Below are positions 54,291 to 64,000 of a stretch of DNA of 64,000 bases, in pieces. How positions within the stretch are numbered: the stretch's first letter is position 1; the number at the start of each line of letters is the position of its first letter. The notes beneath the pieces were generated by a model that saw only the letters and a program-made list of their open reading frames with translations, did no database searches and was not told the DNA's origin. Position numbers and translations under genes: made by a program. This DNA is from Azolla caroliniana (Eukaryota; Plantae; Polypodiophyta), in assembly GCA_043228905.1 (NCBI GenBank), contig JBHGNT010000015.1, positions 5,766,001-5,830,000 of the forward strand. Reading direction: 5' to 3'.

Positions 54291-54792
54291 CATCCACAAA
54301 TAAGGGTGAATGTAATACGCAATTGAGGTATTGACCTCCTATGCACACGACACGAATCACATATCAATATATGTCAAATGAGGTATTGACCTTATACACA
54401 TGTAAACGTTTTATACAACCAATTAATTACCACTACAACATCAATGAATCAATGGAAACATGTTCGCGTTCAGAAGTGGAAGGATAGGGAATTTTCCATT
54501 AGATTTTAGGGTTTTTTTAACCATCTCACAAAAAAAATGATACCTGTATCACATGTGCTCAAAGACTCAAAGGACAAGCTTAAAATATCACCATGTCATA
54601 AAATTGAAAATTCACAAAATTAGACAAATGGAAGAATTTTACAACATGTTTTTTATCATAAAAATAACAACTCATGTTGTTTATATAACAAACAATATTC
54701 ACAATGAGCGATTGATTTAAAAACAATTAAGCTTTATATCATTTGAGTTCTTACAAGCTTATACTGTTAACTGTTCATGCCAAAAAATTCAA

Positions 54793-57700
54793 TCAAGAGT
54801 TATTCCTCCCATACGAATCACTACTATAGAGCCTAGTATACAATGGTGATTCATCCTCTTCATCATCAGATGTACCAATCAAAACATTGTGTTCATCTAA
54901 AAGGAAATGTTGTGACTCCAAATCATGCGTAGAAGATCTGGTCTGCCTTCGATCTGAGAAGCCTCGTAGGCTTGGCAATTTCTCTTTTATTATGTCTATT
55001 GTTGACTTCCTTAAGCGTTCAGCTTTTGTTAGTGTAAAGTCGTGCACAATGATATCCACATCTTGCATGTCAAGGGTCAATGTGTTACGTATATTTCTTT
55101 TCTGCTTTCTATTTCCTCTTGATGTTGGGCATTCCATCATCTCCAATGTATACTTGACTGTAAATGCATTCTTGCTTTTTGTGCTATACCAATGCACCTT
55201 TGTAGACTTTAGCTAATTTTGGTTTTCATGCATCACCCTATCCAATACTTTACCAATCCAAAATTGGTGCCCCATGTCATTGTCATGGGCACGTGTGACA
55301 ATCAACATGCCAACCTTTATTTATTGCGTGTTTCCTTGCCAACAGGCTTCTACTGCTTTTGTCATCCTCAGTCCCACATAGATGTCTCTGTGTTGTGGAT
55401 GGAGCAAGTTGTCAAGATCCACATTCGTTGCACAAGGTGAAGTTTGAGAATTAGGCGTGTGTTGTACGGACCATGTAAATGGTATTTGCAAGGGCCAAAT
55501 ACTAGTGAAGTAATTATCAATAATTCCTTGTTGATCACTAAAGAACATGTCCCACCATGAGGCATCTTGTAGTCGAACATACTTCTTTGCATTATCAATG
55601 TGCTTCCTTTTGTCCTATAAGGCTTGCATCCGAAAATTCCTTTGTTCATCTACCAAATCACTGTGCATTTCCTTTTTAAACTCAATTGGCATTTGTTTTG
55701 CACCATGAATAGTAGTTACAGATGGCATATGAAGCAAGAGCTAGTAACCGCCTTCTGGCTCGCACTGTGGGGAGGATGAATATTGCTTTGCATGCAACAG
55801 TGTACAACCACTTATATCGTTTTTCTTTATGAAGAACACTGTTACCGGCCGGCAAAGGAGTCCAGAGTGGGAAACAGAGAGTTAATTAAGTAGTAGGAAT
55901 GTGGTTGTAATTATGCTATGAGTGTGGACGGACGGACCGGAAACGGTATGCCGTTCCGGATCCGGACCGATCCCGAATAGGTGCGGATGGCACCGTTTTG
56001 TAATACAGACCGGAAACCTATTTAAAGGCCCGGATACAATGTAATAGTTAGTGGTTAATTAATGAAAGCTTAAGCGTTGTTATCTCTCTCTGTTAATTGC
56101 CGTTCTGTCTTAATTGTTATATCTTACGCGTGTTATGAAAGAAGATCCTAATAAGTAACTTAATTAAGTCGGATTAAGCGTTGAAGTCTAATCTGGTTGC
56201 CGTAACACCCTTTGGTGAAGTGTCTCCCGTAGACACCCTGTGTTAGGTCATTGTCCGGCCCGAAGAGTTAACAAACACATGATTGAAGCTAATATTGTTT
56301 AATTGGGCTAACACTTTCACATTCTCCTCCCCAGCATCTGCTATGTATCTCTTAAAGTCGTATATCTCCTTTAAGTGGAGCAAATTCAGATGTGGCGTAT
56401 ATGCATCACAAATGACGTCACAACTGTCTAGAGAATGTACTGAACATTTGATCAATATGGTCATGTGTGTGACCAACCAGAAGGAAGTTAACTTTAACTT
56501 TCCTAAACACTCCTTGTTCCACCAACATGCTCAAATATCTGAAGATAGTTGAATTCTTGTTCTCCTTAGCAGTGTTGTCCAATTGAATGTAGAGAATAGG
56601 GGGCAATGGGTGCCCCCAATTCATCAGAACACTTTGAATCACAGTAATTGTTAGATTGGGGTCGTTGTGGACATTCGGGTAAGTAATGAAGACATGAGGT
56701 TTAACTATCCCATTATAAGCCAAACAACCCACCAAGTGCATCTGAACGAGACATTTGTCGTTGATGTCTTTCGGAAGCCTCCTAAGGTGAGGTAGACACG
56801 ATTTCTTCTAGTCCATACCGTCAATCATTAGACACATATATTGTTCTGGTTTCTTCATCGCCTTCTCTCTGTGGTGCATTGCTTTTTTGCGCTCCAGTGT
56901 TTGCGCTTCTCGATGGTCCTGTAACAATTGTTTATTGATGTTCTTCTGCTTTGTTGTTTTAGCACCTTAGTCATGCTGTTGAGGTTTGCACAAATAAAAC
57001 AATACCCCATGCGTAGTTTCTGAGGTATGCCAACGTTAGTGAATTGTGTTGACCACAATCTTGTGAACTGACTGTAGGTGACATATTTATCACTTGACAT
57101 TAACATATCCGATCTGTAAGCATCATATACTTCTCGTCGTGTGTAATTATCTGAAAGATGCAACCTATCGGTAGTTGGCATTACTTCACAATTAAGGTTG
57201 AAGTAGTTCTTCATCCAACGGATTGCATTTCTTCCGGATGCACCCTTCATACTTGGAACTTCACCGCCATCGACATTGAGATCACCATTGAGAACTCGTT
57301 GTTGCACTCTATGTAATCTCATGTTGCTAACACATAACGAAATCTTGAATGCCATTGTACAACATTGTAGTCCATAGAAGATATAATACTTAAATGAGAT
57401 CTTAATGTCGGAGAATATGTCCTTTACCATCTGCATCTTTGTTGCAAGATAAGTGTCTTGATCATCAGTAGTGAGTGAGAAATAGTATCACCTTAATGAC
57501 CGTAACTTATCCTTTCCAATAGCAGACATGCACCCACGTGCACAACAATCTTTGCTGATATCTACTCTGAGTTGGTTCTCAGATGTCACAAGGGCAAACC
57601 TATCTCGGTTGTTTCGATGTGGAACCCTCGTAAAATGCATAGGGCTTGCCGATTGGATTTCTTCTACACATACATTTGTTGGCTCATTTTGTTTGTTTAC

Positions 57701-57961
57701 TTTGGAATGTGAAACAACAACAACACTTGTGGGAGCTTGATTGTCATTCTCTTCATAGGTTAGATCCTCATTTCAGTTGTACGCATCAATCGAGAACTCA
57801 TGACTTAGGGCGATAGTTGATGGTGACTGAGTATTTGGTGACCACCCGCAATATTCTTCGACAAAAAAAGGTGATCCTATCGAAATCGGATATTCGTCCA
57901 CCGAAAATGGTGAGTTTTGGCTCATTTTCTCAACCTCCGAAGATTTTGTCAAACGATTCAC
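54793..57961 (-). pseudogene. DDD/E transposase pseudogene, Sola-like (inferred)
   Basis: LYIQLDNTAKENKN and FLLVGHTHDHIDQMFS motifs, C-x2-C upstream. Split by stops and a solo LTR. No TIRs found. Confidence 0.75.
55840..56273 (+). mobile_element. Solo LTR of Gypsy-1 family, TSD AACAC
   Basis: TGTTACC...GTTAACA ends. AACAC at 55835-55839 and 56274-56278. Confidence 0.93.
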
Positions 57962-58482
57962 TATTGTTCAAATGAGGTGTTGTTGTACAATATAAGAGAG
58001 CATATAACAAATGACTGAAGCTAAACACATACCTATAAATATAGAAATATAATTTAAGACAAAGCACATTATATATATAAATATTTTTATTATAACTATA
58101 CATAACTAACTAACTATATAACTATATGAGGTCAAGTTATTACTAACCACACCTAATATTTTGTGCCCTATATATAACCGTGCTTTTTATTTTTTCCCCA
58201 CAAAGCATGAGAGAGAACACGACAGCGTAGAGCCCACAAACGTATCAAACCAACGAGCGAGAGAGGAGAGCGTACAACCAACAAGCGTGAAAATCCACGA
58301 GCGAGAGAGGAGAGCCTCACCGCCGCAGCGACAACGCAGAAGACAACACCACCACCGCAGCAACCATGTCTTCGAAGAAGATATCCCGATTGGATTCTAG
58401 GTACGAAACCCTAATCTGTACAGACACCGTCTCCTTCATATCGTTCTCCCTGTATGGAAATCTGAGCACCCCTTTAGACCCA

Positions 58483-58915
58483 AACTCGATACTTGGTATC
58501 GAGTTTCTCTACCGTTAGACGAAAACTCGATACTTGGTATCGAGTTGCTTCCCCTTTAGACCACAACTCGATACCAAGTATCGAGTTGCTCTGCCTTTAG
58601 ACCCCAACTCGATACAATGTATCGAGTTTCTCTACTCCTTGGCCCCAACTCGATACTAGGTATTGAGTTGCTACCCCTATGTATACAAACTCGATACCAA
58701 GTATCGAGTTAAAGCCCATATGTGGAACAACTCGATAACATGTATTGAGTTTGTATACATATGGGCCCGAACTCGATACCAAGTATCGAGTTGAAGCCCA
58801 TATGTGGAACAACTCGATAACAAGTATCGAGTTTGTATACATATGGGCCCGAAACCAATACCAAGTATCGAGTTTCTATACATAGGGGTAGCAACTCCAT
58901 ACTTGGTATCGAGTT
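58483..58915. repeat. 11 x 23-bp palindrome AACTCGATAC-N3-GTATCGAGTT with 18-bp spacers (41-bp period)
   Basis: Unit starts at 58483, 58524, 58565, 58606, 58647, 58688, 58729, 58770, 58811, 58852 and 58893. Confidence 0.95.
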
Positions 58916-59117
58916 GGTATACATATGTGCTACAATTTACATGTTTATTGTCCTATAATACTAGATCGGGCATAAAAATCAAAGCTTTTTAGCTTTAGGT
59001 TTTAGATGTTATTTTGGAAATTTTAAGCCAAATGACCCATTTTAGGCATACAAATAACCTGATGAAGTCTTTCTAAAACTCATAGTGCCAATTTCCTAAG
59101 TCTCCCTATTTTATTAT

Positions 59118-61539
59118 TGTAAACGATTACTTGCGGAAGCGTTAGAAACAGAGAAACTAGGGAATACACAGGGTACGTGGGAGAGACAAAGAGAGCAGAA
59201 CGTAAAAGCTATATTCAAAAGCGATATATGCCTCTCTTCTTTACAATTGTACTCAGTAGCACTATTTATACAAGTCCTCATGGGACTGACAGAAGTACCG
59301 CGTACTTCAATGCTCACACGAGCTTCTGACATTTACTACGAGACTATAATTGCCTAGTAGTCTAAACTAATACTAGGCTTCCGGTTACCGATTGTACCCG
59401 ACTAACCGGCTCCCCAGCTCACCGGCTCTGTTGCTTGCCGGCTTACCGATCCGTCTCGCTTGCCAGCTCAGGCTTATTCAGCCGATCCGGCTCCAGTTGA
59501 TCTTGCCGCTTCAACACTCCCCCTCAAGCTCAACTTGAGGTTGGATCCTAGTGTTAGTCTCTGTGGCAGTCGGTTCTTCCAACCGACTTCTCCTGGCGTC
59601 GCTACGCCTTGCTCGCGCTCCTCGTCCGGTCTGGTTCTGTTTGCCGCGACCCCTCTTGTTCTGCGCACCTCGACCTACTCGATCAATATGTCTGCTCAAT
59701 AGGCCCCTCTCAGCTCCTTCGCTGCTATGACTCTGGTGCTTATCGATCCGTTGGTTCCTCCGCGATGGCATCAACTTCCGCTACATCCATGTCTGCTTGG
59801 CCTTGAATTGATCCGATTCTTCTGAATTTGTCTTTTGAACCGAATCGACTGTCTCCGATTCGTTCCAGCTCTTGTCCGAATCGGTTGCTCTCGATTCATC
59901 TTCTGGTTCCAAGCCCTTCACCACATCGGACCATGTCTGGGTCTTGGCCTTCTTCCTTCGGTCGGCTCTATCCTTCTTGACTCTGCCACCTTCTATTCTT
60001 CCCTCACCGGCGTAATCGACAATCTCTTTGCCTTTGCCCGTTCCGGTGTCTTTGCTTGTTCTCCCCCTCAAGTGTGGCACGTCGAGATGTTGAACACCAA
60101 GCATTTCGGTGAAGTACTGCAACTTGTCTGATCTGAGTGTCTTGGTGAAGATGTCAGCTACTTGCCGATCCGTGTGAACATACCGTAGTTCAACTTCATT
60201 GCTTAGGACCCGCTCACGCACAAAGTGATAATGCACTTCTGTGTGCTTCGTGCGAGCATGGAACATAGGGTTCTTGGCGAGTTGCATGCTACTTATGTTG
60301 TCGCAATAGACCAAAATCGGAGTCGGTACCTCGATCCGTAAGTGTTGCAGCAGTCACCGAAGCTAGTTGGCTTTACAGGTGGCAATGGTAGTGCCCCGAT
60401 ACTCAGCCTCAGTGCTCGACAGAGCAACTGTTGGCTGTTTTTTGCTGCTCCACGCAACAATTGCGCTACCTAGGGAAAACATGTAACCAGAGGTTGATCA
60501 GAGATCTGATGCATCGTCGGCCCAGTCTGCATCCGTGTAACCGACGAGCTCTTCGGGTATACCGCGCCGGTATAACAGGCCCTGGTCCTTCGTGCCGCTG
60601 ACATACCGCAATATCCTTTGCGCGCATTGAAGGTGCTCCACGGTCGGCTTCTACATGAACTGACTTATCATTCCGACTGGATAGCTGATGTCAGGGCATG
60701 TGATAGTTAGGTAAATAAGGCTTCGGACAATTTGTTGGAACCGTTGCTCGTTGTAGGCCGGTTCGGAGTTGGGACGAAGCTTCTGGTTCTGGTCCAAGGG
60801 TGTGGAGACAGGTCGGCATTCTGTCATGCCAAACTTGTACAACATATTCAAGTCGTAATGTCGTTGTGAGAGCAATATACCGGAGTCGGACGTACACCGA
60901 TCTAACTCATCGTTGCCGAATTCAAATTCCTGCATCTTCTTCTTCCCCTTCTCTTTGCGCGTGAACCGTCTCCTCGGTTCCTTGTGCAGGGAGTGCATGG
61001 CACAGTCTCCACTACTCGCCGGTCCCTCATCGGACTAGTCAGATTGACTCAGTCTCTCGTTCGGCCCACTCAACCGGAACGATTCCGGACCCTCATCCTG
61101 AGTCCACGCTTCATCATCGTCTACCTGCGCCGGTTCAGAATTACTAGCCTCATCCATCGGCATCAGGTCATATTCGGAAGTCGGAGTCGGTAAGGACTAC
61201 CATGATGCCGATTCATCAAACTCGAGATCTCGACTAACTTGGACCTGCTTTGTCTGGGGGTTATAACACTTATAACCCTTTTGCTCTTGAGCATAGCCGA
61301 CTAGGATGCATTTTTCCGATTTTGCATCCAGCTTCCACTGTTTCTCATCCGGTACATGCACAAATGCAATGCTACCGAAGATCTTAAGGTGTCTCAAATT
61401 CGGCTTCCGCCCGAAATACAGCTCGTGAGCTGACACCTTGTCACCGATCTGGTTCTGGATGTAGGCAGCCGTTCGGACTGCCTCTGCCAAGTAGAATTTG
61501 GGCATGCTCTTCTCCTCCAGCATTGCCCTTGTCACATCG
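59118..61539 (-). mobile_element. Copia-F (Bryco-like), most of RT deleted
   Basis: 3' LTR 59118-59516, PPT, RH. IN C-terminus fused to late RT near 60885. Cut by Copia-G. Confidence 0.9.
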
Positions 61540-64000
61540 TGTTCAGAGACAAGCTCAACATCGGCCGGATCGGCTGAAGAAGCCGAGGACCGGATCGGTT
61601 GGGACCGATCGGTTAAGCCGGTGTGTAAACCGGGAGGCCGTTAGGAAAGATATTCCGTGAGGAATATATTTGGGAGTTAGTGTAGGAGCTCTCAATGAGC
61701 ATTGAAGTACTGTCAGTACTTCTGTCAGTCCTTCTAGGACTTGTATAAAAGTGTTCATTGAACACACATATGAGTAGAGTAGTGAATCGAGATTGTGTAT
61801 TATTTTTAGTTGAATATAGTTCTTGTTTCCTCTCTTTGTCTCTCCCGACGTATACTGTGTAAGCTCAAGCTCTCCATTAAACCTGAGTGTTCTTCCTTCT
61901 GTTCTGTCTTCATACTTGCTTCCGCACGCTACTTTTTACATGGTATCAGAGCACGAGGGTTGAGAACCTCTCTGCAGCCGACACAGCTTGACGAACAAGA
62001 ACAAGAAGAACGATGGATAGAGGCATGGCAAGCTTGGTTCCAACAGAGAAGCTCGACAGAACCAACTACGCGTCTTGGTCCTACAAGATGCACCAGTACC
62101 TGCTTGGGCACGGCTACTGGAGTTATGTCGAAGGAGCTAATGATGTGGCACCCGAATCGACACACAGAGACTTTCTGTCGTGGGAGCAATCGGTTTGCAG
62201 GGTATTATACTGCTTCGCGTCGTGTGTGGGCGAACAGCTATTGAGCTATGTTCGGGATGGAAAGACGCCGAAGGGTGCGTGGGAAAATCTGAAGAAGATC
62301 TTCGCTGCGAGCACCACAGCCAGGAAGCTTCAGCTCCGACAGGAGTTGAGCAACCTATGACAACACGACTTGTCGGTGGAGAACTATACCTCGAAGATCA
62401 AGGATATCTGCGACTCCCTTGCCTCCATAGAGGTGAACATCGAGGAGAGCGAGATGGTCTAGATCTGTCTCGGAGGTTTGGCGTCGAAGTTCGGAGCGTT
62501 CCGAACGGCTATGTGTACCCGGGAGAATACGTCGTCCTTTTTCGACCTACAGTCGATGCTCCTGGTAGAGGAGAACCACGCGGGTGTGTCGACGAGCACG
62601 CACACCGACAGCAAGATGTTGTACACGGAGGGAGAAAGGCCACGTGGTCGTGGCGGACGAGGCGAGTCGGTACGCAATGGAAGCAGTCGACGAGATCAAG
62701 GAAGAAGGCACCGAAGTGATGCCGACAGCAACTCCGGACCCTCCGGAAACAGGGGGAGTCGAAGCGATGGGAACCGGCAAGGGAAGGCCATCGCGGAGTG
62801 CTGGTACTGTGGCAAGAAAGGCCATAGGGAAAGTGAGTGCTGGAAGAAGCGCGCCGATTTGGAGAGAACCGGTTCCGAAAACGGCTCCGGACATACCGAC
62901 AAGGGAAATCGGCAGCAATCGCACTATGCCGAAGACTCCGGGAGAGACGGAGAATGGTCTGCCTTCGTGACGAGACACGAAGCAAACTCAATGAAATAGA
63001 CCACCCCGAGATCGGATGAGGTGTGGTACGTTGACTCCTACGCGTCAAACCACATGATGAGCCATAAGGAGTGGTTCTCGTACCTGGAAAAACCGATACA
63101 ACCTGGAGTAGTCGCAACTGGAGACGACACTCCGCATCCGATCGCGAATATCAGAGAAGTTCCCCTTAGCCATGTTGGGCAGAAAGGGAAACTCATGAAC
63201 GTGTTGCACGTTCCGACAATCACGAAAAACTTGGTCTCGGTCGGACAGATCATCGACCAAGGGATGGAGGTTCGGTTTACACACCTCGGGTGCTTCATTG
63301 AGGAAGAAGGCCGTGTGATTGCGCAAGGGCGCAGAGACGGGAGGATGTTCATCCTCGATTCCACTGACGGTGGCACCGCAATGTTCGCAAAGGGAAGAAA
63401 AAACCGAGTCGGACATCGACTTGTGGCACAAGCGGATAGGCCACGTCAACTACCAGCGGCCTCAAGATCTACCATCGATTTGTGAAGCCTGCCAGCTCGG
63501 GAAGCAACACCGACTTCCCTTCCCCAACGAGCGAAACCGGAGCCGGAACAAGCTCGACCTTATACACTCCGATGTATGGGGGCCGGCACAAAATGTTAGT
63601 CTTGGCGGGAGCCGATATTTCGTCTCCTTCATCGACGACCACACGTGGCACACGTGGATCTACCTCATTGAGAGGAAGAGCGAAGTCTTCGACGGCTTTC
63701 GGGACCTCAAAGGGTTCGTGGAAACGGAAACGGGATGAAAAATCAAGTGCCTGCGGTCGGATGGCGGGAAAGTACTTTTCCGGTCAATTCAACGGTTACC
63801 TACAACAAATGGGAATTCGCCGCGAATTCAGTTGTAGATACACGCTGGAGCAAAACGGCGTGGCCGAGAGGAAGAATCGGTCAGTTGTGGAAGCGGCACA
63901 GACAATGTTGGAGGAGAAGAGCTTGCCCAAGTTCTATTGGGCCGAGGCGGTAAGGATTGCGGTATACATCCAGAACCGGATCGGAGACAAAGTGTCGGCG
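61540..64000 (+). mobile_element. Copia-G (Bryco-like) 5' half
   Basis: LTR 61540-61940, PBS 61941-61952, gag from 62013, CWYCGKKGHRESEC, PR WYVDS, IN HSDVWGP. Confidence 0.93.

Follow-up and report, generated by a model that had tools for sequence, protein, structure and literature searches.

VANC, encoded by VANDAL transposons of Arabidopsis, binds family-specific motifs that accumulate in tandem within introns and further non-coding regions of its own element (PMC5735166). VANDALs are described in the available part of a recent preprint as the sole transposons for which binding and modification of their own elements is known (bioRxiv 2025.02.11.637652). Two 2025 papers propose self-modification for further transposons, naming no site and giving no test in the parts available to us (PMC12477816; bioRxiv 2025.02.11.637652). 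The Sola1 element Sola1-1_Ec32 of Ectocarpus carries, on the opposite strand, a gene for a ParB-like domain joined to a 4mC/6mA methyltransferase, and the authors suggest for proteins of this kind that they attach to the element encoding them and modify it; the main text has zero mentions of 'palindrom' or 'tandem array' and leaves the binding site unnamed (PMC12477816). In Bostrychia, the ParB-like accessory gene of Plavaka elements with PAG2/PAG3 adjoins 'tandem arrays of inverted repeats', its proposed binding sites (bioRxiv 10.1101/2025.02.11.637652); section 8 of that preprint describes no phasing, flipping or family-specific sequence, and its supplements may hold array details. From the parts available, a Marchantia 4mC preprint and PMC4738411 concern other methylases, and PMC5751038 and PMC4455052 deal with classification only. 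Neither a case from land plants nor any description of phasing or of family-specific palindromes came up in our literature searches; what was known already is the gene pair (Ectocarpus) and the association of ParB with inverted-repeat arrays (Plavaka).

Here, we analyzed a 64,000-nucleotide stretch of Azolla caroliniana DNA (contig JBHGNT010000015.1, positions 5,766,001–5,830,000), referred to as the window, in which the original prediction had placed a palindrome array upstream of a Sola-like transposase. The array lies in a dead copy of a transposon that belongs to an old subfamily with a 41-bp period. The features of this copy in the window are as follows.

54457–54492, plus strand: left terminal inverted repeat (TIR; 36 bp in intact copies), with a candidate target-site duplication (TSD) TGGA at 54453–54456.
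54814–57943, minus strand: broken Sola1-type transposase gene with DUF7869 (a 927-aa frame in intact copies), carrying stops, frameshifts and an insertion.
55840–56273: 434-bp insertion in the transposase gene.
58169–58177, plus strand: predicted TATA-like box upstream of ORF2; a similar box occupies the same place in the intact-looking copy L020.
58366–58400, plus strand: predicted ORF2 exon 1, 35 nt, encoding MSSKKISRLDS, with a GT donor at 58401.
58483–58915, no strand assigned: palindrome array, 11 units of 10+3+10 bp with a period of 41 bp, in predicted ORF2 intron 1.
59118–64000, no strand assigned: nested Copia LTR retrotransposons in the same intron, with a target duplication ATTAT at 59113–59117.

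The transposase remnant on the minus strand confirms the predicted upstream position of the array. The second gene, ORF2, was missed earlier because the Copia nest splits it: the gene picks up again ~6.7 kb past the window, at L072:6692, and a further break follows at L072:9246. The 30 kb that follow the window did not reveal the right end of the element. The array begins 82 bp after predicted exon 1 and 4.0 kb from the left element end (54457). That the gene is spliced is a prediction from the conservation of donor and acceptor positions and from the frame; the 35-nt exon with its GT donor recurs in other subfamilies, and exon 1 is, by inspection, in frame with exon 2 when read over the predicted intron. 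The insertion at 55840–56273 has TG...CA ends and an AACAC duplication and is likely a solo LTR. The Copia sequence (59118–64000 plus L072:1-6678) lies on the minus strand, with at least one more Copia nested in it and a primer-site-like motif near 61940.

The array consists of eleven copies of the unit AACTCGATAC-N3-GTATCGAGTT, which start at 58483 to 58893 in exact 41-bp steps with zero indels, as originally reported; 100 rounds of shuffling the window gave zero palindrome matches. A recount of the 18-bp spacers reproduced the relations claimed for them: spacer 10 matches the reverse complement of spacer 5 at 17/18 positions, spacers 7 and 9 are identical, spacers 6 and 8 agree at 17/18, and spacer 7 is an inverted relative of spacer 5 (13/18) and of spacers 6 and 8 (11/18 each). 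Units 5–11 do form a larger fold-back, with arms at 58645–58779 and 58783–58917 that are 78% complementary. The 3-bp cores occur both ways round (TTG and CAA), and an 82-bp repeat of spacers 6–7 is an evident tandem duplication. The nearest sister among the copies compared (L088, 85–92% identical) also has an inverted copy of spacer 5 at its 3′ end, so this inversion was likely inherited.

The exact 23-mer has 2,757 matches in the 523-Mb genome, and a reversed control has none. When aligned, each of the first 11 arrays on contig 1 falls in the same element, whose intact-looking copy L020 (9.2 kb) contains a 36-bp TIR, the 927-aa DUF7869 frame on the minus strand, a divergent spliced ORF2 and the second TIR. 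The order is TIR, transposase (leftward), two divergent promoters, exon 1, array, remainder of ORF2 (rightward) and TIR. All 21 full-length young copies have the 36-bp TIR and a 4-bp TSD. Exact TIR matches number 752 genome-wide, implying several hundred copies, and 2,757 palindromes to 752 TIRs is about the ratio expected if arrays stay within elements. Linkage of the array to this transposase family, also part of the original prediction, is borne out in both directions: when the transposase was the sole criterion, 37 of 40 loci had an array within 10 kb (two of the 37 pushed away by insertions) and the remaining three ended before the array position; when an 18-bp spacer was the criterion, 16 of 17 loci had transposase or ORF2 matches. 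Each element has one array in a central place: either end is ~4 kb away, exon 1 ~80 bp and the transposase start about 0.5–0.9 kb.

The transposase matches Pfam DUF7869 (E = 2.6e-50) and keeps the stretches DGMDQ, LDN and GHTHDHID in most of 53–56 own-genome loci; their acidic positions are presumably the catalytic D residues of Sola transposases. The label Sola1-type rests on the TIR and TSD, DUF7869, the acidic motifs and termini that resemble those of Sola1-1_Ec32. At its start, the transposase frame of the young family has a 13-residue repeat, encoded in L020 by a 39-bp tandem repeat (L020:3745-3876). Three deletion derivatives of ~4.3–4.7 kb (L075, L079, L081) have lost most of both genes and keep 12–22 palindromes with mixed periods of 31/40/41/51/62 bp; they possibly represent a non-autonomous family that needs the array.

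ORF2 is predicted to fuse a ParB-fold domain to a bacterial-type 6mA/4mC methyltransferase. Exon 2 has no Pfam match. A structural model of its core (mean pLDDT 76.6) matches Noc/ParB best (Foldseek E = 5.6e-5), its structural matches being bacterial ParB/Noc/KorB (PDB 7ol9, 7bnk, 7bm8 and 8qa9), and a VIA alignment with 7bm8 gives Z = 10.6 and an rmsd of 2.2 Å over 98 residues. For the helical part, which would read DNA, there is an alignment with full ParB chains and a weak match with the ParB DNA-binding domain by itself (Z = 3.6). The arginine box of CTP-binding ParB proteins reads GxRR, and ORF2 has GSHS at this position (GGSHS in most loci). A later exon matches PF01555 (N6_N4_Mtase, E = 8e-8), and the same ParB-methylase fusion is found in 8 of 31 longer homologues scanned. 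DIPY, which we take to be motif IV, is kept in 52/54 own-genome loci, and its exon lies upstream of the exon with LDLFSG, our candidate for motif I; motif IV before motif I would fit a beta-class amino methyltransferase. The homologue P0019 has M.RsrI, MboIIA and CcrM as its best matches. Motif IV is altered (DVAY, DIVY, HIAY) in 6 of 11 metagenome loci. Metagenome contigs L140, L142, L147, L164, L192 and L198 hold arrays with 50/62/125 spacing near methylase exons.

Among named sequences, the closest relatives of ORF2 come from a fern assembly, at 71%, and from a gymnosperm-type gene model, at 48%. Searching the Azolla genome with a distant homologue (115 of 1235 candidates scored, 12 examined further) returned the known subfamilies and one sister family only. 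Between the 51-bp, 41-bp and 32/40-bp subfamilies, the ParB and methylase parts have pS of 0.67–0.92, at or near saturation, and pN of 0.04–0.14; ORF2 is under purifying selection. In a language-model comparison, the ParB-like core (L020:6432-7352) has clusters of fungal DUF3723 as its neighbours (score 0.96). Starships carry DUF3723 as an accessory gene, which may also encode a ParB-like protein; a literature search pairing DUF3723 with ParB found no paper.

The half-site is identical in the 51-bp, 41-bp and 32/40-bp subfamilies. Because their synonymous sites are saturated and their spacers unrelated, this identity places the half-site under constraint, and the array is a real, constrained cis element. 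Its units are also phased. Array periods cluster at 31–32, 40–41, 50–52 and 61–63 bp, and periods of 31, 41 and 51 are mixed within single arrays. Genome-wide, with spacer lengths of 10, 16, 17, 19, 20, 26 and >29 left out of the count, exact half-site pairs number 48 at 30–32 bp, 3 at 34–38, 39 at 41, 27 at 44–48 (16 of them a 46-bp variant) and 2,095 at 50–52. The off-phase 46-bp unit, found at 16 places (e.g., G000:C2:5662288), mostly has one nearly palindromic 23-bp spacer and was likely inherited in a subfamily.

We grouped spacers into classes, which are not phylogenetically independent, so that copies were not counted repeatedly. Among classes present in at least 3 loci, 12/12 in the Azolla genome fall within 1.6 bp of n × 10.3 (expected fraction 0.28), as do 29/30 in metagenomes (at least 120 loci, among the matches listed); the own-genome loci were partly chosen by spacer length and the metagenome loci by the palindrome alone. 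With singletons included, 39/55 classes in the own genome and 62/79 among the metagenome matches listed are in phase, and the best-fit period is 10.15–10.35 bp. The proposal of helical phasing, at about four turns, thus stood up. In the 51-bp family, gain and loss of a 10-bp inner arm is seen, a mutational route that could account for part of the 10-bp steps; since this route exists in one subfamily, selection for phase is only an inference.

Spacers and cores are far less stable than sites. The arrays of 21/21 young copies all differ, with 2–16 units between flanks up to 99.78% identical, and spacers occur 121 times in one orientation and 87 times in the other (154 versus 149 for cores). Neither the order nor the orientation of spacers is fixed, and the reshuffling by inversion suggested earlier is supported. 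Neighboring cores are independent (127 same, 128 opposite) and neighboring spacers are not (103 same, 48 opposite). Against fixed flanks, the first core reads GGC in 18 and GCC in 4 of 25 first units, and the last core reads TTR in 4/6 and CAA/CAC in 2/6; GCC differs from GGC by one base and TTG from CAA by three. Inverted arms enclose each core and each spacer as a loop, and hairpin loops are reported to be inverted by template switching (PMC10710096). The flips, along with duplication and deletion, are likely passive replication accidents, tolerated because the site is symmetric. In one very young sister-family pair the arrays differ at one base only, so rearrangement is not instantaneous.

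Palindromes could instead be crossover sites for an enzyme that inverts the DNA between them, as in a shufflon-like switch. Inverted arms around an asymmetric core do look like recombinase sites, rearrangement is very fast, and the co-orientation of neighboring spacers shows that blocks move together. Core-cleaving conservative recombination would not flip terminal cores against their flanks, as happens here, and hairpin-loop inversion fits these cores better. Unit number varies too, neither the transposase nor ORF2 matches a recombinase family, and the spacers encode nothing switchable, which together make such a switch highly improbable.

The spacers also bear on the alternative, raised in the original prediction, that hairpins in the spliced intron are diced into functional small RNAs acting as guides or decoys. 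The array does lie in the predicted transcript, and its fold of −228 kcal/mol (z −23) is what any palindrome array must give, which makes it trivial support for an RNA reading. Helical-step spacing would be meaningless for single-stranded RNA; no relation links the spacers of different subfamilies, and those of sister copies have been reshuffled. Spacer 5, the one of the 11 spacers searched genome-wide, has 8/8 matches inside arrays, and the best match to Rfam miRNA families scores 63.7 bits against a gathering cut-off of 230. We therefore consider functional small RNAs very unlikely; host siRNAs arising from the hairpins as a by-product are plausible. A CRISPR-like guide array was likewise rejected, as the spacers are related and repeated and spacer 5 occurs only in arrays. 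Searched against the window, all 11 spacers gave one match, with 3 mismatches.

The sister family provides a natural control. Its transposase is 51% and its ORF2 exon 2 57% identical to those of the main family, its layout is the same, and 7/8 copies have 4-bp duplications. The sister palindrome, AATCCGATGC-N3-GCATCGGATT, has 644 exact copies, with 131/144 intervals at 41, 51 or 71 bp. The half-site keeps 7/10 positions, and the sister TIR shares only its first 5 bases with the main-family TIR. Sister loci L283-L289, L292 and L293 (e.g., G000:C1:22633800-22643799) are very young, two insertions differing at 5/8973 bases. Shape and phase are thus kept while sequence is family-specific, the pattern of a site that would be read by an element-encoded dimer. 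A neutral minisatellite, for which the tandem duplication of spacers 6–7 speaks, would account neither for a half-site constant despite saturated synonymous sites and unrelated spacers nor for the same place and periods in a family with another site sequence; it is largely refuted and hardly credible.

Which protein would read the site is a separate question. The original prediction proposed sites for a dimer, which the helical phasing supports, and named the transposase as the binder, with the array as its subterminal repeats. Internal transposase-binding sites acting as an enhancer would be a related possibility: arrays accompany the transposase, phased spacing suits any DNA-binding dimer, the derivatives L075 and L081 keep 12–22 units (they were picked by array, which biases this point), and the first 8 TIR bases match the half-site at 6/8 places. 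The array is, however, single and central in predicted ORF2 intron 1, 4 kb from either end, in place of subterminal repeats, and in the sister family the TIR and half-site have no common motif beyond AA. ParB-like genes also adjoin inverted-repeat arrays in elements with unrelated transposases, as the available part of one preprint reports (bioRxiv 2025.02.11.637652). Binding by the transposase is accordingly unlikely, and the ParB-like protein is the likelier reader. Core divergence between the two families is equal for the transposase (70%) and ParB (73%), so divergence does not single out ORF2; it is favored because its fold is predicted to be that of ParB, because the array sits within this gene and because no TIR motif is shared.

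A host factor might read the array, or the repeats might position nucleosomes or bend DNA at a bidirectional promoter, with ORF2 a mere neighbor. The observed 10.15–10.35 bp is closer to the helical period of wrapped DNA than to 10.5 bp; the array also lies close to exon 1 and to the transposase start. A fixed host factor would not favor a site that changes with the element family, and ParB proteins bind palindromes (bioRxiv 2025.02.11.637652, available part), which leaves a host reader quite unlikely.

The array probably serves as phased double-stranded docking sites for the element's own predicted ParB-like methylase, which would then mark or shield its element. A dimer of the ParB-like domain would sit on each 10+3+10 site, and in-phase spacing would let several dimers cooperate or wrap the DNA. 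The methylase domain would then write 6mA or 4mC in cis, and so either help the element evade silencing by host 5mC or autoregulate the pair of divergent promoters next to the array. Spacers and cores would flip as loops between inverted arms, by template switching or conversion, and such flips would be tolerated if nothing counts but the distance and the symmetry of the site. The signal lies in the site and phase, which stay fixed, and the spacer flips are likely the least meaningful part of the array. More tentatively, the element may carry a private, family-addressed epigenetic system, in which a ParB-derived methylase on a parS-like array (multiples of ~10.2 bp) wraps or spreads and writes 6mA/4mC, the two families being orthogonal site-protein pairs.

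CG and CHG transitions are ~fourfold above CHH, in keeping with a land-plant host. CpG transitions within the site number 15/1308 in young copies, versus 32/1308 at neighboring CpG, and 38/316 in the old 41-bp family that includes the window copy's subfamily (counts not independent). Shielding from host 5mC would be weak at best, at most twofold in young copies and confounded. Outside eukaryotes, the palindrome occurs singly at 14 prokaryote loci and 1 viral-contig locus, and no arrays were found in the prokaryote genomes and viral contigs searched; the prokaryote loci (L257-L270) come from 14 genomes, 12 of them Flavobacterium.

A single plant genome holds a candidate 23-bp site with its permitted spacings, young copies that look intact and a sister family whose site differs, so that tests of binding, site swapping and phasing can be planned directly. 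An active methylase would make the element a transposon-borne source of 6mA/4mC for land plants, as well as a methylation tool that is compact and addressable.

The predicted ORF2 core fold and the clustered palindromic sites resemble bacterial ParB/Noc/KorB with parS; unlike bacterial ParB, ORF2 is a spliced eukaryotic gene fused to a methylase, does not keep the arginine box and has no ParA gene in its element. Like VANDAL/VANC, whose transposase we assume to be of the MULE type, the Azolla element has family-specific tandem motifs in non-coding parts, although the proteins are unrelated and it is not a VANDAL member; as described, VANC motifs are 8–9 bp and non-palindromic, and VANC has been shown experimentally to cause methylation loss. 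Plavaka of a red alga likewise combines a ParB-like accessory gene with adjoining inverted-repeat arrays, but its transposase is EnSpm/Plavaka, its ParB is reported as fused to a 2OG oxygenase and its methylase as a separate gene. With Sola1-1_Ec32 the Azolla element shares, as far as that element is described, a 4-bp TSD, termini starting AAC and the same gene pair, and it is thus a recently described kind of transposon. The two differ in that Sola1-1_Ec32 belongs to a brown alga and measures 21.5 kb with a 282-bp TIR, whereas the Azolla element, in a land plant, measures ~9 kb with a 36-bp TIR and carries a defined phased array.
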